From the NCBI GenBank assembly GCA_022560555.1, contig JADFSZ010000053.1, positions 1-9,680 on the forward strand: a stretch of 9,680 nucleotides of DNA, read 5' to 3'. This stretch comes from PVC group bacterium (GTDB lineage Bacteria > GCA-001730085 > JADFSZ01). The notes under the pieces are model-generated. The model was not told where the DNA came from. It saw only the letters and a program-made list of their open reading frames with translations, and searched no databases. This document shows positions 1,534-8,653 of this stretch, piece after piece. Position 1 is the stretch's first letter. Each line of letters begins with the position of its first letter. The position numbers and the translations under genes are program-made.

Positions 1534-2334
1534 ATGGTAAAAACTAATATTCCCTTTTATCTTTCGCTCGCAGGGATCGCGGGGATTGTCTTTTTTCTAG
1601 CCTTGGAAAGGGTTTTTCCTTTTCGGCGGATGACGTTACTGCCCTGGCAAAGATGGCTTATCAATTTTTCCCTCAGTTTTTGTAACCTTCTTATTGTGGA
1701 TCAAGGCTTTGTGATTCTTCTGCAACGAACGTCTCTTTTTACAGAGCTGTTTCATCTAGATTTATTTGGCCGTCTCGGTCTCAATAGTTTTTCGCGCGTC
1801 ATACTTACGATTGTGATTTTAGATCTCGCGATGTATGTCTGGCATCGTCTCAATCACGCGATTCCTTTTTTGTGGCGGTTTCACAGGGTGCACCACAGCG
1901 ATCGCGAAGTGGATGTCACGACAGCTTCCCGTTTCCATTTTGGAGAGGTGACCTTGGGAGCCATGATCAATTATGCCCTCATGCTTTCTTTGGGTGCCTC
2001 CATTTGGGAGGTACGCATTTTTAAGGTGATCTTTGTTTTTATGACCCAACTCACGCATAGCAATATCAGGATCGCCAAACCACAGGAGGATATCTTCTGG
2101 CTTGTCTTTGTGTCGCCATCCATGCATCGCATTCACCATTCGGATATTCGTTGCGAGACCGATTCGAATTACGGTACGATATTTTCCGTTTGGGACAGAT
2201 TGTTCAGAACTATAGTGAGTGGTGTCAATGCCAAGAAGCTTCACTTTGGTCTTAAGGAATTTGAAAAACCGCAGGAACTCACATGGCCGCGGCTCATCAC
2301 CATGCCCTTGAAACCCGTGGAAAGGAAAAAATGA
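1534..2334 (+). CDS. Fatty acid hydroxylase / sterol desaturase family integral membrane protein (di-iron, histidine-box enzyme)
   Basis: Three histidine boxes in the canonical order: WHRLNH, FHRVHHSD and MHRIHHSD. Several hydrophobic helices. Purine-rich RBS (AAGGAAAAGAG) upstream of the ATG at 1534. Confidence 0.88.
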   Translation: MVKTNIPFYLSLAGIAGIVFFLALERVFPFRRMTLLPWQRWLINFSLSFCNLLIVDQGFVILLQRTSLFTELFHLDLFGRLGLNSFSRVILTIVILDLAMYVWHRLNHAIPFLWRFHRVHHSDREVDVTTASRFHFGEVTLGAMINYALMLSLGASIWEVRIFKVIFVFMTQLTHSNIRIAKPQEDIFWLVFVSPSMHRIHHSDIRCETDSNYGTIFSVWDRLFRTIVSGVNAKKLHFGLKEFEKPQELTWPRLITMPLKPVERKK

Positions 2335-3356
2335 TGAAGACAGGAACCGTGAAATTCAAAATCGTTTTTCTGCTTATGGTGCTGATATTAGTGCCGGGCG
2401 GGGTATGGGGCATAGCAGGGCTGCGTGTCCCTTCCTCACGACTCGTAGATTTTGATTATGAAATACGCATTCACGATATTCCTCAAGGCAGCAGGGAATT
2501 GAAAGTCTGGCTGCCTCTTTTAGCTCAAACCCCCTATCAGGAAATTAAAAACATAACCATCGAACCACAGGAACACACGGCAATCTACTATGATCCGGTC
2601 TATCACAATAAAATTCTCAGTTATACGGTTGACATAGCGCGACGGGATTCCTTAATATTCAATGTGCGCTATCGCGTGAAGCGCTATGAATATTCAAATA
2701 AACACGGTATTTTGAAGACGGTTTTGGCGAAAGATGCGGATTTGAATCGATACCTCAAGGCCAATCGTTTGGTCACCATAAGTCCCAAGGTTAAAGACTT
2801 GGCCGATGAAATTACAATAGCCGAGACATCGACGATGGGGAAAGCTCGTGCGATTTATGACTATATTTTTCACAATGTTTCGTACGACAAAACCATTTTG
2901 GGTTGGGGAAACGGCGATACGGAACGGGTCTGTTCGGTAAAGGCCGGCAACTGCACGGATTTTCATTCGTTATTTATTTCGCTCGCGCGTGCCGTGGATA
3001 TTCCGGCAAAATTCGTGATGGGTGTTCCTCTCATCCATAATACACCGGAAGGCGAGATTTGCGGATATCATTGCTGGGCGGAGTTTTATGATGAGATTTT
3101 AGGGTGGGTACCCGTGGATATTTCGGAGGCTTGGAAGGACAAAGCGAAATACGAATATTATTTCGGCACAATCGGACCGGACCGCCTTGAGGTGAGCGTG
3201 GGACGGGACATTGTTTTGGATCCGAATATTCACATGGAACCTTTGAATTATTTTATTTATCCGTATGTGGAAATAGATGGAAAGGTTTTTGAGCAGGTCC
3301 GAACATCTTTTCGGTTTAAAGAGGTGAATCAAAGAAAGGAGGCGCGCGCAACTTAA
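2331..3356 (+). CDS. Secreted transglutaminase-like (Cys-His-Asp) superfamily protein
   Basis: I prefer the ATG at 2331 over the ORF-track start at 2283. It has GGAAAGGA 5-12 nt upstream, forms an ATGA overlap with the upstream stop (2332-2334), and yields a signal-peptide-like N-terminus MMKTGTVKFKIVFLLMVLILVPGGVWG. Transglutaminase core motifs are present: GNCTDFHSLFISLARAVDIPAK (Cys), GYHCWAEFY (His) and GWVPVDISE (Asp). Confidence 0.88.
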   Translation: MMKTGTVKFKIVFLLMVLILVPGGVWGIAGLRVPSSRLVDFDYEIRIHDIPQGSRELKVWLPLLAQTPYQEIKNITIEPQEHTAIYYDPVYHNKILSYTVDIARRDSLIFNVRYRVKRYEYSNKHGILKTVLAKDADLNRYLKANRLVTISPKVKDLADEITIAETSTMGKARAIYDYIFHNVSYDKTILGWGNGDTERVCSVKAGNCTDFHSLFISLARAVDIPAKFVMGVPLIHNTPEGEICGYHCWAEFYDEILGWVPVDISEAWKDKAKYEYYFGTIGPDRLEVSVGRDIVLDPNIHMEPLNYFIYPYVEIDGKVFEQVRTSFRFKEVNQRKEARAT

Positions 3357-3415
3357 TACAATGCAAAATTCGTTGGTTTACATACTTCACAACACAATAA
3401 ATGAGGAGAAAATAA

Positions 3416-3952
3416 GTGAACAAATTCATAGTCTTAATCATGATTATCAATGCTATGGTTTTTGGAGCCGGTTCGATGGTTTTGGCGGCCGAGCATGGAG
3501 GGCAAGAACACGGTGGAACAAGCGTAAAAGAAAACGGCGGGACAAGCACTCCGTCTAATGATGCCATTCGGACGGCCATGACAGATTATGTCATGAGAGA
3601 ATCCGAGGCAACGGGAACATTAGATGTGTTAGATCCCGAAACGGGGCAAACGCGACAATTAGAACTCGTCAGAGTTCATGAACGTGTTGGCAAAACAGGA
3701 AATTACTATTACTCTTGTGCGGATTTTAAAGATATCAAGACCGGTCAGCTTCTTGATCTTGATCTTGATGTGGAAGACGAAGGCGGCCGCTTAAGTGTCA
3801 AGGACGTGAGAATTCACAAAGTCGATGGGCATGAACGCTATACGTACGATTCCTCTGACAATCGAATTCCTGTCATGGAGGAAGGCAGTCATAGGGAAGG
3901 ATCTGAGCACGGAGGCAAAGAACACGGAGGCAAGGAGCACGGAGGCAATTAA
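3416..3952 (+). CDS. Secreted protein of unknown function with E-H-G-G tandem repeats at both ends of the mature chain (candidate periplasmic metal-binding protein)
   Basis: GTG start 7 nt downstream of GAGGAG (3403-3408). Signal peptide MNKFIVLIMIINAMVFGAGSMVLA, then AEHGGQEHGGTSVKENGGTS. A roughly 110 aa acidic core follows. The C-terminus is SEHGGKEHGGKEHGGN. I cannot name a family for the core. Confidence 0.78.
   Translation: MNKFIVLIMIINAMVFGAGSMVLAAEHGGQEHGGTSVKENGGTSTPSNDAIRTAMTDYVMRESEATGTLDVLDPETGQTRQLELVRVHERVGKTGNYYYSCADFKDIKTGQLLDLDLDVEDEGGRLSVKDVRIHKVDGHERYTYDSSDNRIPVMEEGSHREGSEHGGKEHGGKEHGGN
3491..3544 (+). repeat. In-frame 15-bp repeats encoding EHGGQ / EHGGT, plus a degenerate ENGGT copy
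   Basis: gagcatggagggcaa (3491-3505) and gaacacggtggaaca (3506-3520) are adjacent copies. gaaaacggcgggaca (3530-3544) is a diverged third copy after a 9-bp spacer. Confidence 0.8.
3905..3949 (+). repeat. Three perfect-register 15-bp tandem repeats encoding EHGGK-EHGGK-EHGGN directly before the stop codon
   Basis: gagcacggaggcaaa (3905-3919), gaacacggaggcaag (3920-3934) and gagcacggaggcaat (3935-3949), followed by TAA at 3950-3952. Confidence 0.95.
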
Positions 3953-4136: not shown

Positions 4137-4721
4137 ATGGCGGATCACGGAATAACAATCAGGAGGCTTATTGTTCGTGCGCGGAAGTTGACGATTGTTT
4201 TGACTTTTCTATTCGGACTGAGTCTGAATGGGATGAACAGTCCGCAAGCGGCACAAGTCGGCCAACAAGCATCCCAATGGGTTGTCTCGGAATGGGTCAA
4301 CAGTGAGCCGATCTCATTAGACCAGCTTAAAGGGAAGGTCGTTGTGATTGATTTTTTTCAGCTGTGGTGTCCGGGGTGTAATCGTTTTTCCATTCCGCTT
4401 ATGCTTCAATGGGAGAAAAAATATAAAAACGCCGCTGATGTTCAGCTGGTAGGGATTCATACGGTTTTCGAAGGGCATGATTATCAAACAGCCGAACGCT
4501 TGAGGGAATATGTAAAAGAAAAGGGGATACAACATCCGGTAGGAATGGACGCGCATGTGAGCGACACCCGGCTCCCGGAGACCATGATCCGTTATCAAAC
4601 AAAAGGAACCCCTGAGATGGCGATTGTGGACAAGCAAGGAGTGATTCGTTTTCAAAAATTCGGCTCTTTTGATATTGGAGAGGCAGAAAGTTTGATCGCG
4701 GAATTACGACGTGCCTTCTAA
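4137..4721 (+). CDS. Exported thioredoxin-fold thiol:disulfide oxidoreductase (redoxin / TlpA-like family), CPGC active site
   Basis: KGKVVVIDFFQLWCPGCNRFSIPL is the beta-strand plus W-C-x-x-C signature of TlpA/AhpC-TSA-like redoxins. The conserved cis-Pro region GTPEMAIVD lies near the C-terminus. The N-terminus has a hydrophobic segment LTIVLTFLFGLSL followed by PQAAQ, consistent with a signal peptide or anchor. Confidence 0.85.
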   Translation: MADHGITIRRLIVRARKLTIVLTFLFGLSLNGMNSPQAAQVGQQASQWVVSEWVNSEPISLDQLKGKVVVIDFFQLWCPGCNRFSIPLMLQWEKKYKNAADVQLVGIHTVFEGHDYQTAERLREYVKEKGIQHPVGMDAHVSDTRLPETMIRYQTKGTPEMAIVDKQGVIRFQKFGSFDIGEAESLIAELRRAF

Positions 4722-4750: not shown

Positions 4751-5158
4751 ATGAACAATATTCTTCGAGGATTCATAATGTTTTTGTTCTTAGGTCTTGC
4801 TTGTCCCCTGCCGTCTTTTGCCATGCCGGTGGAAGAGCTATCTTATGAAGGGAAAATACCCGAGGAAGGGTTGTTTCATACGGCAAGGTTTAAAAGTCTA
4901 GGGCTGAATGTCGATAGCGGCACGAAAAATATTCATCATGAAAAAATGCGTGTTCAACAACGGCGTAAATCAAAAGCCCCAATGAGGACAACTGCCGGTG
5001 GATATGCATTCGCAACTCTTTTGGACCAAGATCATTTTGATTTAGATGTGCTGGTGATGGGATTCCTTTCTCCTTCTGCTCCCGCAGTTCCGGAGCCGAT
5101 GTCTCTTATTCTTGTGGCGTCGGGATTGTTGGGGGTCTTGACTCGACGACGCAGATGA
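4751..5158 (+). CDS. Small PEP-CTERM sorting-domain protein (predicted exosortase substrate)
   Basis: Strong RBS AAGGAGGAG (4737-4745). N-terminal signal peptide MFLFLGLACPLPSFA. The C-terminus VPEPMSLILVASGLLGVLTRRRR has the textbook PEP-CTERM architecture: PEP motif, TM helix and Arg cluster. Confidence 0.85.
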   Translation: MNNILRGFIMFLFLGLACPLPSFAMPVEELSYEGKIPEEGLFHTARFKSLGLNVDSGTKNIHHEKMRVQQRRKSKAPMRTTAGGYAFATLLDQDHFDLDVLVMGFLSPSAPAVPEPMSLILVASGLLGVLTRRRR

Positions 5159-5274: not shown

Positions 5275-6237
5275 ATGAAAAATTCTAATAAATGGCTCCT
5301 ATCAATAAAAGAAAGAAAGTTCAGAGGTATTCGGATTTGTCTGAGCGCTATTGTTATTGTTGGAGTATTCTTAAGTTATGAATTTTTAACGGCCCGTTCA
5401 AGAGTCGAATCTGAAATAAAAGATATTTACTTTAGCTTGAAACAAGCTTCCGCGGAAAAGCAAGATTTAGACAGCACAAAGAGAGAAGAACTCATCAGAA
5501 AACTTATTTCCAAAGAGCCTTCTTACCGTTGGGAGGCCGCTTCTGAGTTGGCAAGGTGGAAAGATCAAAAATCGGTAAATGCCATCATTGATGCCATGCG
5601 GGACACAAAAGGAACAATTCGTACTTGTGTCATGGCTGAGTCATTAGGTAGGATTGGGGACAGAAAAGCCATACCCGCTCTCATTCAAGCCATGAATCAG
5701 CCTGTTAATCAAGACTTGCGTATTTGCGCCACTCAAGCGATAGGTGAAATGAGGGATAAACGAGCTTTAAGCCCCCTCATAGAAAAAATACGTCATTCGG
5801 AAGACGAGTTTTTCACTGCTGAGGCACTAGGAAAATTAGGAGATAAAAAAGCGTTACCCATATTAGATGAGGCCGCCAAGAAATCAAAGGATCCTCTCAT
5901 TCAAGCGGCTATCCATCGCGCCATTGTGATGATTCAAATACAGAATGAGAAAGATCTTGTTTCGGCATTCATTGAGGCATTGAATAACGAAGATGATCAA
6001 ATAAGGTTCTGGGCCCTTAAAAATTTAGCTCTTAAGCGGGACTCAAAAGCCATTGAGCCCATTGCCAATACACTCCAAACATCAAATTCTAAGGATATAA
6101 AAATATATGCAGCGGCTACTTTAGCCTATTATGGAAAAGGAACAAGACCCTTCCTTGAAAAAGCAAAACTGACGGACGATAAGATAACCCTTTGGGCAGC
6201 GGAGTATGCTATTAAGCTTTTGAATAAAAAATCATGA
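5275..6237 (+). CDS. HEAT-repeat (PBS-lyase HEAT-like) protein with a single N-terminal TM anchor
   Basis: Repeated units with the signature G-x-(I/L/M)-(G/R)-D-x-(K/R)-A-(I/L)-(P/S)-x-L-I: GRIGDRKAIPALIQAM, GEMRDKRALSPLIEKI, GKLGDKKALPILDEAA and LKRDSKAIEPIANTL. The N-terminus is MKNSNKWLLSIKERKFRGIR followed by a hydrophobic helix ICLSAIVIVGVFLSYEFL. The stop TGA (6235-6237) overlaps the sigma factor ATG (6234-6236). Confidence 0.82.
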   Translation: MKNSNKWLLSIKERKFRGIRICLSAIVIVGVFLSYEFLTARSRVESEIKDIYFSLKQASAEKQDLDSTKREELIRKLISKEPSYRWEAASELARWKDQKSVNAIIDAMRDTKGTIRTCVMAESLGRIGDRKAIPALIQAMNQPVNQDLRICATQAIGEMRDKRALSPLIEKIRHSEDEFFTAEALGKLGDKKALPILDEAAKKSKDPLIQAAIHRAIVMIQIQNEKDLVSAFIEALNNEDDQIRFWALKNLALKRDSKAIEPIANTLQTSNSKDIKIYAAATLAYYGKGTRPFLEKAKLTDDKITLWAAEYAIKLLNKKS

Positions 6238-6818
6238 ATTCATCAACGATAGAAATACAACGTAAATCGTCCACCCCGGAAACCTGGGTGGACCATTATG
6301 GCGACTATCTTTATAGGTATGCTTTGAGTCGTCTACGGAATGCCGGACTTGCGGAAAATCTTGTTCAGGAAACCTTTCTTGCCGCGCTTCATTCACGGGA
6401 CCGCTTCTCAGGTTTGTCCACAGAAAAAACCTGGCTTACCGGAATTTTGAAACATAAGATTGTCGATCACTTTCGCAAGAATTACAGAGAACATCCTGTC
6501 AGTGACTTTGTCAATGAGGATGAATCCGTAGATGAGTTTTTTACAAAATCCGGAATATGGAAAAACCAGCCCGGACATTGGACTCTTGATCCGGCAAAAC
6601 TTCTGGAAAATAAAGAGTTTTGGGAAGTCTTTAAAGAGTGTCTTAACAGACTCCCCAGGCCTATGGCAGATGCCTTTATGTTAAGCACAATGGAAGGCAT
6701 GAAAACGGATGAAGTTTGTAAGATATTGAATATTACACGAACTAATTTGTGGGTTATTCTTTGCCGTGCACGCATGAGGCTGAGGCAATCTCTGGAAAAT
6801 TGTTGGTTCCAAAATTAA
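6234..6818 (+). CDS. ECF-type (sigma-70 family, group 4) RNA polymerase sigma factor
   Basis: Region 2: YLYRYALSRLRNAGLAENLVQETFLAAL...TWLTGILKHKIVDHFRK. Region 4 helix-turn-helix: MKTDEVCKILNITRTNLWVILCRARMRLRQSLE. The linker between them is long, about 40 aa. The C-terminal ...LENCWF ending resembles the TIGR02943-type ECF subgroup, as far as I recall. Confidence 0.92.
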   Translation: MNSSTIEIQRKSSTPETWVDHYGDYLYRYALSRLRNAGLAENLVQETFLAALHSRDRFSGLSTEKTWLTGILKHKIVDHFRKNYREHPVSDFVNEDESVDEFFTKSGIWKNQPGHWTLDPAKLLENKEFWEVFKECLNRLPRPMADAFMLSTMEGMKTDEVCKILNITRTNLWVILCRARMRLRQSLENCWFQN

Positions 6819-6857: not shown

Positions 6858-6909
6858 ATCATTTTATTATTTGCATTTCTTTTGTTCTTTAATTTTTGAG
6901 GAATTCAAT

Positions 6910-7638
6910 GTGAATCAGATTTCTTTAGGTATGGCTTTTATAGCAGGGATACTATCGTTTCTCTCGCCTTGCGTATTGCCGCTGATACCGGGATACATTT
7001 CGTTTCTATCCGGAGTATCGGTCGAAGTGCTCGAGAAGGACACACATCGTCGAGAGGTCTTTTGGAAAACGGGCATGGCTTCGATCTTTTTTGTATTGGG
7101 ATTTTCAGCCGTTTTTATAGCTTTAGGCGCCTCCGCTTCTCTTGTCGGAAAATTTTTACTATCTCATATGACAATATTTACCAAGGTCGCCGGGGTATGT
7201 ATTGTGATATTGGGACTGCATCTTGTGGGGATTCTAAAAATAAGCTGGCTCTACACAGAAAAGAGATTGAGAATCAAGCGGCATTCACCTGGTTTTTTCG
7301 GCGCTTTCGTGATCGGACTTGCTTTTGCTTTTGGCTGGACTCCGTGTATCGGACCCATTCTGGCAGGAATTCTTACGCTGGCAGCAGCCCAAAAGACCGT
7401 TTTAGAGGGGATGTTTCTTTTAGCTGTTTATTCATCAGGACTTGGCATTCCGTTTATTATTACAGGGTTTAGTGTTGGTCTATTCATGCGCTTTTTTAAG
7501 CGTTACAAACGATTTATTCGCTCCGGAGAGATTGTGGCCGGATCGCTTTTGATCGCGATCGGGGTGCTTGTGTTTTCCAATAATTTGACGATGCTACTGA
7601 GATATATCCCCTCTTTCTTTTACAAATTTACAATATAA
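6910..7638 (+). CDS. ccdA: CcdA / DsbD-family transmembrane thiol:disulfide electron transporter (cytochrome c biogenesis protein CcdA family)
   Basis: Both conserved membrane-embedded Cys motifs are present: LSFLSPCVLPLIPGY and FGWTPCIGPILAGIL. It is polytopic and hydrophobic throughout. I prefer the GTG at 6910 (GAGG at 6898-6901, 8 nt upstream) to the TTG at 6871. The ATG at 6931 is an alternative. Confidence 0.9.
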   Translation: MNQISLGMAFIAGILSFLSPCVLPLIPGYISFLSGVSVEVLEKDTHRREVFWKTGMASIFFVLGFSAVFIALGASASLVGKFLLSHMTIFTKVAGVCIVILGLHLVGILKISWLYTEKRLRIKRHSPGFFGAFVIGLAFAFGWTPCIGPILAGILTLAAAQKTVLEGMFLLAVYSSGLGIPFIITGFSVGLFMRFFKRYKRFIRSGEIVAGSLLIAIGVLVFSNNLTMLLRYIPSFFYKFTI

Positions 7639-7659: not shown

Positions 7660-8178
7660 ATGAAAAAAAGAAAGTTAATTCCGTTCATCGTAGTCATATT
7701 ACTGATAATGGCCCTGAGCCCTTTATTGAAAAGTCAACGGACGCCTGTTGCAGAAAACAACTCAGGAGATCAAGTCGCTTCAGATTTCACTCTCAATGAT
7801 CTTGATAACAAGCCTTTTCGGTTTTTTGATCTTAAAGGGAAAGTGATCATTCTCGATTTCTGGGCGACCTGGTGTCCCCCATGCATAGCGGAATTACCTC
7901 ATTTCAAAGCTCTTTATAGTGAGTATCAAGAACAGGGATTAGAGATTGTCGGCGTTTCTCTTGATCAAGGGGGCGCTGATGTGGTTAGGCCTTTTGTCAA
8001 GGAGCATGAAATCAATTATACAATGCTCATTAGCAACCAAGAGGTGGTTGAGGATTACGGAGGAATTCGCGGGATTCCCACGACATTCATCATTGATCGG
8101 GAAGGGCGTATTGTTGAGACGTTTGTGGGCTATCGGGATAAAGAAGTATTTGAGTCAGTTATTCAAGAGCTTTTATGA
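7660..8178 (+). CDS. TlpA/ResA-like periplasmic thiol:disulfide oxidoreductase, CPPC active site, N-terminal signal anchor
   Basis: RBS AGGAG (7644-7648). N-terminal anchor KLIPFIVVILLIMALSPLL. Motifs DFTLNDLDNKPFRFFDLKGKVIILDFWATWCPPCIAELP, LEIVGVSLD and GIPTTFIIDREGRIV are a textbook TlpA/ResA/DsbE family pattern. It lies directly downstream of ccdA, the usual electron donor. Confidence 0.92.
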   Translation: MKKRKLIPFIVVILLIMALSPLLKSQRTPVAENNSGDQVASDFTLNDLDNKPFRFFDLKGKVIILDFWATWCPPCIAELPHFKALYSEYQEQGLEIVGVSLDQGGADVVRPFVKEHEINYTMLISNQEVVEDYGGIRGIPTTFIIDREGRIVETFVGYRDKEVFESVIQELL

Positions 8179-8194
8179 ATGACAAGGGTGACTG

Positions 8195-8653
8195 ATGAAT
8201 AAAAATCCTACTGTCTCTCGCAATGCTCCGTGTCCGTGCGGAAGCGGTAAGAAGTACAAACGTTGTTGTGCTTTAAAGGGAGAGCAAGAAGCCTCTTCGC
8301 ACCGACAACTAAAGAGAGCCTTGAAATGGATCGGCGGAGCGGCCGTTGTGCTCCTGGTCGGCTACGGGATTTTCAGGAATGGTCCTGTAAGCAGGCCCAC
8401 CGGTTATAATTCGGTTATCTCTGAAGGTTCGCGGGGAAGGGGTTACTACACGGACTCAGATATCACTGCGGTGGATTTCTCCGGACTCACACAGGCACAA
8501 AGAAAAAAAGTTTTAGATAAAACCAACAAGATGCAGTGCCCCTGCGGATGTGCAATGACGCTGGCCCAATGTGTTGCGGTTGATAGGACCTGTCCTTTAA
8601 GAAGCTCGAACATTAAAAAAATGAGAGATCTTGTAAAGGAATTAAGTGGATAA
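8195..8653 (+). CDS. Single-pass membrane protein: N-terminal SEC-C zinc-binding motif, one TM helix, C-terminal Cys-rich domain (CxCxC-x6-C-x6-C)
   Basis: aa 13-25, CPCGSGKKYKRCC, is the SEC-C motif (the SecA C-terminal zinc finger pattern C-x-C-x8-C-C/H). aa 44-60, KWIGGAAVVLLVGYGIF, is a TM helix. aa 115-133, CPCGCAMTLAQCVAVDRTC (nt 8537-8593), is a second cysteine cluster. A weak SD-like AAGGGTG lies at 8184-8190. The gap from the tlpA-like gene is 16 nt. Confidence 0.78.
   Translation: MNKNPTVSRNAPCPCGSGKKYKRCCALKGEQEASSHRQLKRALKWIGGAAVVLLVGYGIFRNGPVSRPTGYNSVISEGSRGRGYYTDSDITAVDFSGLTQAQRKKVLDKTNKMQCPCGCAMTLAQCVAVDRTCPLRSSNIKKMRDLVKELSG

Follow-up and report, generated by a model that had tools for sequence, protein, structure and literature searches.

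EHGG repeats in a predicted secreted protein family encoded beside a transglutaminase-like enzyme: a candidate metal-capture element

A 9,680-nt stretch of DNA from a PVC group bacterium (contig JADFSZ010000053.1, hereafter the window) encodes a 178-aa protein that combines a Sec signal peptide, a folded core of an undescribed family and tails made of Glu-His-Gly-Gly (EHGG) units at both ends. Comparative analysis of its homologues indicates that the EHGG unit itself is under selection, and revealed that it starts at a fixed register behind the predicted signal-peptidase site and occurs either fused to the core or as a small gene beside it, mostly in the company of a gene for a transglutaminase-like (TGase-like) cysteine enzyme. 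Judged from these sequences, metal capture is the most likely role of the EHGG element, and metal binding by the tails is plausible; the full explanation that we favour, a flexible metal-capture device serving the core and the TGase-like module, stands in our estimate at an even balance.

EHGG units and the predicted mature N-terminus

The gene and its parts, with residues numbered on the precursor and the evidence in brackets, are as follows.

3403-3408 (+): Shine-Dalgarno-like GAGGAG, 7 nt 5' of the GTG start (sequence reading)
3416-3952 (+): gene for the EHGG-tailed secreted protein, 178 aa, stop codon 3950-3952 (list of open reading frames, ORFs)
3416-3487 (+): predicted Sec signal peptide M1-A24, cut VLA↓AEH (-3/-1 rule, n=152 homologues)
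3488-3496 (+): predicted mature N-terminus A-E-H (family -3/-1 statistics)
3488-3550 (+): disordered N-terminal tail A25-T45 (predicted local distance difference test, pLDDT, <50 at residues 25-40)
3491-3502 and 3506-3517 (+): EHGG units of the N-terminal tail (sequence reading, motif logo)
3530-3541 (+): degenerate unit ENGG of the N-terminal tail (EHGG at the same place in homologue P0002)
3551-3871 (+): folded alpha+beta core P46-P152, undescribed domain family (pLDDT >90, invariant columns)
3677-3679 (+): conserved core residue H88 (72 of 95 single-domain cluster representatives)
3716-3718 (+): conserved core residue C101 (85 of the same 95)
within 3755-3769 (+): conserved core residues D114/D116/D118 (D114 in 88 and D116 in 93 of 95)
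3815-3817 (+): conserved core residue H134 (85 of 95)
3872-3949 (+): disordered C-terminal tail V153-N178 (pLDDT <50 at residues 158-167)
3905-3949 (+): EHGGK-EHGGK-EHGGN, three 15-bp units (Tandem Repeats Finder, sequence reading)

The ORF agrees with that quoted in a preliminary description of this DNA: its GTG start stands directly behind an in-frame TAA and is preceded by the GAGGAG element, and a scan for promoters and terminators gave no signal exceeding the shuffled background. The EHGG units reported there at both ends were also recovered, the C-terminal ones by Tandem Repeats Finder as a 15-bp repeat at 3908-3948 (2.7 copies, 92% matches, score 68). Five EHGG tetrapeptides within 178 aa far exceed what chance would be expected to give. 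The three C-terminal units have the His and Gly codons CAC GGA GGC in common, which indicates a recent expansion, and the earlier suggestion that copy number might vary is borne out by P0001 and P0002, homologues 91-95% identical to the window protein, which carry two C-terminal units against its three. The N-terminal tail reads A25-E-H-G-G-Q-E-H-G-G-T-S-V-K-E-N-G-G, and its ENGG is EHGG in P0002 (91% identical). Here the units are written in differing synonymous codons (CAT/CAC; GGA GGG / GGT GGA / GGC GGG), which argues that the motif is maintained at the protein level.

The same regularity was observed across the family. At 702 Gly-Gly sites in the tails, Glu stands at -2 in 685 and His at -1 in 655, and the repeat histidines, whose loss from homologues would have told against the preliminary description, are almost invariant; the EHGG unit is conserved at 93-98% per position and the spacers are variable. 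The unit is preceded by K (50%), Q (18%) or A and followed by T, K, A or N, and the commonest spacing from His to His is 5 residues (199 cases), next 8-10. Of 103 C-terminal tails, 72 close with Gly-Gly followed by K (39) or N (33), and in most of the remainder a different single residue follows Gly-Gly (among them Q 6, S 6). Trp is absent from the tails. Among 179 non-redundant members, 152 have an N-terminal tail, 99 of these together with a C-terminal one, 4 have the C-terminal tail alone and 23 are tail-less. Some members carry Met-rich tails (MMEEKGS, MMEDKG) or EHP repeats in place of EHGG, and the tails of other relatives, which vary in length and type, are acidic or rich in Pro and Ala. 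Literature on EHGG-type repeat motifs yielded nothing relevant.

The position at which the first unit begins is constrained as well. The signal peptide consists of n, h and c regions MNK, FIVLIMIINAMVF and GAGSMVLA, with a helix at residues 3-15 in the AlphaFold2 model of the 178-aa protein. V-L-A24↓A25-E-H is the sole cleavage site conserved family-wide: among the 152 homologues with an N-terminal tail, residue -1 is A, S or G in 150 (A 140, S 6, G 4) and residue -3 is V, S, A, I, G or T in 145. The predicted mature start is NH2-X-E-H in 146 of them, with Glu at position 2 and His at position 3, and the residue ahead of Glu is variable (A 119, G 17, V 7, K 4, D 2). A cut one residue further on is disfavoured, since some homologues would then have V, K or D at -1, and L, F or Y at -3. 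The cut to A-E-H postulated in the preliminary description thus finds comparative support, and signal peptidase probably cuts one residue ahead of Glu. The register recurs in distant EHP-repeat relatives, about 10 of 15 of which start A↓[AG]-E-H-P, and in stand-alone secreted EHGG proteins (A↓[GAV]-E-H-G-G, for example LLA↓GEHGG and LYA↓GEHGG). As the predicted mature residue 1 is A, G or V, a pyroglutamate block is not expected.

Core, EHGG element and transglutaminase-like enzyme as one module

A word-indexed search with the whole protein returned 884 homologues (E<=1e-3, the best 95% identical), of which the named ones are all "hypothetical" proteins from Omnitrophota and Candidatus Scalindua assemblies; for the gene adjoining the EHGG gene in the window, a 98%-identical copy is labelled "PVC group bacterium". 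Searching 1.8 billion representatives with a core-only profile gathered 918 clusters (50% identity, E<=1e-3). Besides the residues listed above, polar positions D73 (94 of 95), D103 (81), Y144 (80), K135 (79) and R141 (79) are conserved, and the core looks like the carrier of a functional Cys/His/Asp surface. The AlphaFold2 model, built on a 42-sequence alignment, has pLDDT >90 for about residues 44-152, with a helix at 48-62 and four long antiparallel strands, and both tails are disordered (pLDDT <50). At 3751-3769 a perfect 6-bp tandem repeat (TCTTGA x3.2) codes for the invariant L-D-L-D-L-D core strand, so that an invariant, structurally essential strand is encoded by slippage-prone DNA.

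The preliminary description could not name the core, and our searches gave the same result. The whole protein matched nothing in Pfam or NCBIfam at E<=0.1, including the models of periplasmic copper-chaperone families (CusF, CopC, PCuAC, CopK and others), 30 core sequences drew scattered noise alone from Pfam at E<=10, no scanned family member carried a Pfam domain over the core region, and a PDB sequence search with the protein gave no match. Foldseek of the model against PDB retrieved generic cystatin/NTF2-like alpha+beta rolls (E 0.01-0.4, identity <=16%), suggesting that the fold class is recognisable; a homologue was not found among these structures. A reading of the core as a cystatin-type inhibitor, directed at the adjoining cysteine enzyme, was dropped, because these matches are generic (E>=0.01) and the inhibitory motifs are absent: neither the core sequence nor its consensus has the N-terminal Gly, the QxVxG hairpin or the PW hairpin of cystatin inhibitors. 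A YHS-domain match in P0256 (19 bits, under the Pfam cut-off) was not counted. Two domain copies were found in 52 of the best 149 core clusters; in this branch (P0146, P0166, P0171 and about 50 more representatives) tandem cores make up about 230 aa, the conserved Cys and His are mostly lost and His-rich tails are absent, and its function is presumably different.

The organisation of the EHGG element was followed by scanning the DNA around each core gene in 73 species-representative genome loci with short flanks. EHGG repeats are on the core protein itself in 44 loci and on a separate small gene beside a tail-less core in 21; in the other 8, of which 3 are at contig edges or have broken genes, no EHGG was found. 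The view that many tail-less homologues make the tails dispensable was therefore rejected, as a separate EHGG gene lies beside most tail-less cores. The free element takes three forms: secreted proteins with a signal peptide, X-E-H-G-G units and a conserved C-terminal helix (…AATIREAASILKSTHPDLAAKLE…), lipoproteins consisting of KEHGG repeats alone, and repeats with an N-terminal membrane anchor. Some of these genes lie between the TGase gene and the core gene. Proteins of the first form, about 85 aa long and without a Pfam match, constitute an unannotated family with genes beside tail-less core genes (L046 9579-9851, L051 140-421, L055 5213-5488, L059 6102-6407, L062 10334-10660, L069 1720-2109, L070 4560-4934, L071 9639-9911, L075 1036-1335, L076 7743-8081 and L080 5617-5883). 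No other ORF longer than 130 aa with two or more EHGG units was present in any locus examined, and a search with a stand-alone KEHGG lipoprotein returned 9 small relatives and no annotated repeat carrier. One lineage, on six contigs, joins a tail-less core and a Cu/Zn superoxide dismutase in a single protein (P0152; PF00080, E=1e-34; L080 6001-6828, L081 2057-2884), in the context of GT2, radical S-adenosylmethionine (SAM), fatty-acid-hydroxylase-family (FAH) and TGase genes and a thioredoxin gene, with a free GEHGGSEHGGSEHGG… protein beside it.

Directly upstream of the EHGG gene, the window encodes the two proteins that complete the module.

1534-2334 (+): FAH membrane protein (PF04116, E=3e-29)
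2283-3356 (+): TGase-like cysteine enzyme, secreted or membrane-anchored (PF01841, E=4e-26; likely start ATG 2328)

In the window, as in 57 of the 73 loci (about 78%) or 49 of the 64 with sufficient upstream sequence, the gene directly upstream on the same strand codes for a TGase-like enzyme, and gaps between the partner genes go down to 5-20 nt. The enzyme and the core are thus regular neighbours, and since EHGG is fused or adjacent to the core and has no other large carriers, we conclude that EHGG element, core and TGase-like enzyme belong together. The Cys-His-Asp triad (C209/H248/D264) is invariant in 32 sequences, and the best Foldseek matches of its AlphaFold2 model are 3ISR (E=4e-18) and the periplasmic domain of TgpA (E=6e-9). 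Two more Cys are invariant in the 32 homologues, C202, seven residues ahead of the catalytic Cys, and C249, which adjoins the catalytic His; such a pair might act as a redox switch, in keeping with the thioredoxin-rich neighbourhood. The FAH and TGase-like ORFs overlap by about 50 nt in different frames in the window and are fused as one protein of 412-622 aa in L001 and L079. An apparent transglutaminase-core fusion, P0134, was not used, as it looks like read-through or a mis-called ORF.

This pairing raises the question of whether the EHGG units are substrates or recognition elements of the adjoining enzyme, with His serving recognition and not metal; they might be cut after Gly-Gly, as by double-glycine peptidases and ubiquitin-processing enzymes, or cross-linked through Lys and Gln. 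The short gaps and frequent pairing, the intact triad, the C-terminal ends in Gly-Gly plus exactly one residue, the K or Q ahead of the units and the stand-alone EHGG genes between TGase and core genes are all consistent with such a relation. We nevertheless regard it as unlikely: thirteen loci with tails lack a TGase gene within 2.5 kb, Gln is unconserved and missing altogether from some tails, Met-rich and EHP tails substitute in relatives still paired with a TGase gene, and a fixed X-E-H start makes no obvious sense for a protease or cross-linking substrate. A variant that would reconcile cleavage with metal chemistry is that the enzyme cuts poly-EHGG after each Gly-Gly and frees K-E-H-G-G pentapeptides, with the core as scaffold or acceptor. 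Each pentapeptide would have its own NH2-X-E-His site and would amount to a ribosomally encoded periplasmic metal-chelating peptide. The Gly-Gly-plus-one C-termini, the commonest 5-residue spacing and the protease-like partner fit this variant, to which we assign a very small probability.

The tails might also have no specific ligand at all and act as disordered spacers, or as sinks for His and Met oxidation, in an envelope stress-defence locus. Their disorder, their variable length and type and the acidic or Pro/Ala-rich versions accord with this, as do neighbouring genes for thioredoxins, DsbD/CcdA, MsrA/B, superoxide dismutase, protein-isoaspartate methyltransferase and an ECF (extracytoplasmic function) sigma factor. 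Conservation of the unit, the fixed start register and its upkeep as a dedicated separate gene favour a specific function over bulk composition, and make non-specific tails a quite improbable explanation.

Metal capture, the choice of metal and the arsenic-type context

We propose that Sec export would deliver the protein to the periplasm as one component of a conserved module, made up of the FAH-like membrane protein, the TGase-like cysteine enzyme and the small alpha+beta core with its Cys/His/Asp surface. The EHGG-repeat element would accompany this module either on the core, in the window protein at both ends, or as its own small secreted protein. Free NH2-X-X-His peptides bind Cu(II) and Ni(II) tightly, and the prion octarepeat coordinates Cu(II) through a His-Gly-Gly core. 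Cleavage by signal peptidase would accordingly expose NH2-Ala-Glu-His as an amino-terminal site of the Cu(II)/Ni(II) type, and the internal (K/Q)-E-H-G-G units would offer imidazole, carboxylate and possibly backbone-amide sites on flexible arms. Bound metal might then follow one of two routes: it may be handed to the Cys/His/Asp site of the core or to a client enzyme, or it may be kept off the catalytic thiols of the partner enzyme and other periplasmic thiols. The gene, its repeats, the family, the register, the fused-or-free pattern and the gene neighbourhood are what the sequences show; that metal is bound, which metal it is and which way it would be passed on is what we infer from them. 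His/Met interchange is typical of periplasmic copper proteins, and the Met-rich tail variants and the fusion to Cu/Zn superoxide dismutase are hints of copper. In PcoB, a disordered His/Met-rich N-terminal domain is needed for the efflux of copper (PMC12509749).

Several observations weigh against this proposal. The lipoprotein and membrane-anchored EHGG forms lack a free X-X-His, which means that the amino-terminal site is not universal; the Cu(II)- and Ni(II)-binding amino-terminal (ATCUN) site of the preliminary description thus stands as to its conserved His-3 register and falls short as the whole account. Glu appears as invariant as His, which simple ATCUN chemistry leaves unexplained. 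In EHP relatives, Pro blocks prion-type coordination toward the C-terminus, and no single mode fits all variants. The hosts (Omnitrophota, and Planctomycetota including Scalindua) are largely anaerobes, for which Cu(II) should be scarce. Classical copper genes were not regular neighbours in the loci, a MerR/MerT-HMA/CopZ-like set being present in one locus only. The recurrent ArsM/ArsS-type context described below belongs to a pathway for which we know of no copper or nickel need. In addition, with a best Foldseek E of 0.01, the modelled fold provides no functional anchor.

The tails might alternatively bind Zn(II), or Fe(II)/Mn(II), through His and Glu, as a periplasmic zinc buffer or chaperone instead of a copper or nickel site. 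The Glu-His pair, common to EHGG and EHP tails, suits a carboxylate-plus-imidazole site, a Cu/Zn superoxide dismutase needs zinc too, and Zn(II) and Fe(II) are still available in anoxic habitats. On the other side, Met-rich tail variants are typical of Cu(I) and not of zinc proteins, the fixed His-3 register is unnecessary for zinc, and ZnuABC/Zur-type genes were not seen in the loci examined; we consider such a buffer rather unlikely.

The gene neighbourhood suggests a further alternative. The closest relative with a long contig, at 71% identity, has the EHGG gene in one operon with ArsM/ArsS-type genes, in the order ArsM-like methyltransferase, ArsS (TIGR04167, 446 bits against a cut-off of 300), FAH, FAH-TGase, EHGG gene, flavin adenine dinucleotide (FAD) disulfide reductase, TIGR04282, DedA and TIGR04283, and in L079 the arsenosugar-cluster gene models score above cut-offs. 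Across the 73 loci, ArsM was found in 17, TIGR04282 in 17, TIGR04283 in 15, ArsS in 12 and PHO4 in 10, besides a DUF255-type thioredoxin in 24, and a FAD reductase, DedA and a TlpA-like redoxin in 11 each. ArsS is a radical-SAM enzyme that adenosylates arsenic, according to work cited in PMC12159101. The protein could accordingly be the periplasmic arm of an organoarsenical (arsenosugar or arsenolipid) pathway, in which the task of the core Cys/His/Asp site would be to handle a species of arsenic or selenium or an intermediate of the pathway, and the tails would be secondary. Searches with Pfam and NCBIfam found neither ArsM nor ArsS within the window, however, and most loci show the TGase gene alone. 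One Cys per chain is a poor As(III) site, and His, Glu and Met tails are ill-suited to arsenic chemistry. The "arsenosugar" names of TIGR04282 and TIGR04283 in NCBIfam appear to be based on gene association and not on assay. On balance we hold a primary role in arsenic chemistry to be improbable. Protein-isoaspartate methyltransferase was found in 7 of the 73 loci; such protein-L-isoaspartate O-methyltransferase-like genes lie just 5' of the TGase gene (L057 7905-8774, L073 6793-8859, L004 6167-6925 and four more loci), some with an apparent signal sequence or permease fusion.

The preliminary description drew its context from thiol-redox genes and overlooked the upstream TGase-like gene, the FAH-like gene and the frequent ArsM/ArsS-type clusters. 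Three thiol-redox genes lie downstream of the EHGG gene, each identified with Pfam and NCBIfam.

4137-4721 (+): TlpA/ResA-like periplasmic thioredoxin with a CPGC motif
6871-7638: CcdA
7660-8178: second TlpA/ResA-like thioredoxin

Such genes do recur across the loci; the link to copper that had been drawn from them is weak, as recurrent thioredoxin and CcdA genes are most simply explained if periplasmic cysteines must stay reduced. The window also encodes a LysM-YkuD transpeptidase. Between the two thioredoxin genes are a small PEP-CTERM-tagged protein (4751-5158), a membrane-anchored HEAT-repeat protein (5275-6237) and an ECF sigma factor (6234-6818; TIGR02943 family, above cut-off), which the HEAT-repeat protein may regulate. 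The product of 8195-8653 carries a SEC-C zinc-binding motif at its N-terminus, a membrane helix by prediction and, at its C-terminus, a Cys-rich segment (CPCGCAMTLAQC…C), and a 42%-identical copy of it is encoded near thioredoxin genes in L044. A short ORF between the glycosyltransferase and hydroxylase genes (1110-1325; …LVRYIHLNPVRANM…KWSGHREI…) has no Pfam or NCBIfam match and looks like what is left of a transposase-type gene; it may be the trace of a rearrangement that parted the window locus from the ArsM/ArsS genes of its relatives.

Significance and comparison with known systems

In kind, X-X-His sites are already known, and so are disordered, His-rich segments with which periplasmic proteins bind metal. 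The protein family, its fold, the fixed-register E-H-G-G unit, the fused-or-free organisation and the pairing with a TGase-like enzyme within ArsM/ArsS-type clusters are undescribed in the databases and literature searched. If the tails bind copper or nickel, they would represent a large unannotated periplasmic metal-handling family, whose core falls into about 900 clusters at 50% identity, for the most part from uncultured Omnitrophota and Planctomycetota. Its fold would be new for proteins of this kind, its capture element would be modular, fused in some cases and free-standing in others, and its amino-terminal Cu/Ni site would be generated by signal-peptidase cleavage, which to our knowledge is little documented in bacteria. 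Both the pairing with a TGase-like enzyme of unknown substrate and the frequent placement in ArsM/ArsS-type clusters offer a handle on poorly understood systems, in the former case on two at once. The family could receive a domain definition in public databases, and it would be an experimentally tractable lead to periplasmic metal handling.

Among known systems, the ATCUN sites of serum albumin (DAH), histatin-5 and hepcidin resemble the predicted A-E-H start, which has a predicted free amine, His in third place and no Pro among its first three residues. ATCUN is a motif and not a protein family, however, and in the present case signal peptidase would make it and internal E-H-G-G units come after it; Glu-2 and Gly-4/5, which ATCUN does not require, are invariant here, and lipoprotein versions lack the motif. 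The prion octarepeat PHGGGWGQ likewise has tandem His-Gly-Gly units, comparable to the His before Gly-Gly in 655 of 702 tail sites. It differs in that the present unit has no Trp, no Pro before His and no third Gly, and in the Glu that precedes His in 98% of units; there is no homology, and for EHP-type relatives the prion coordination mode would be impossible.

The N-terminal domain of PcoB is periplasm-facing, disordered and His-rich, with XXH-like motifs, and is poorly conserved in length yet needed for copper handling (PMC12509749). It is rich in both His and Met, and relatives in the present family swap His-rich for Met-rich tails. PcoB is a beta-barrel without kinship in sequence or fold, and the EHGG unit is far more regular and conserved. 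The ZnuA loop and the ZinT N-terminus are flexible His/acidic segments on folded periplasmic proteins and are thought to capture metal; their folded domains are different, they lack the repeat regularity, and the Met-rich variants seen here point away from zinc.

For the core, the AlphaFold2 model of one helix on a curved four-to-five-stranded antiparallel sheet resembles cystatin/NTF2-like proteins. Its best Foldseek matches, all with E>=0.01, are the designed cystatin-fold protein 4r80 (TM-score normalised to target 0.70), phytocystatins, affimers and ketosteroid-isomerase/NTF2-like proteins; the conserved Cys/His/Asp set of the family has no counterpart there. The fusion of the core to Cu/Zn superoxide dismutase recalls the chaperone-client fusions and pairings of eukaryotic CCS and Salmonella CueP, without similarity in sequence or fold, and as a single fusion lineage it is a hint and not a proof. 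The TGase-like enzyme of the window shares PF01841, the triad and a structure match with 3ISR, a "putative cysteine protease" of Cytophaga hutchinsonii, and with TgpA of Pseudomonas aeruginosa, neither of which has been described with an EHGG or core-type partner.

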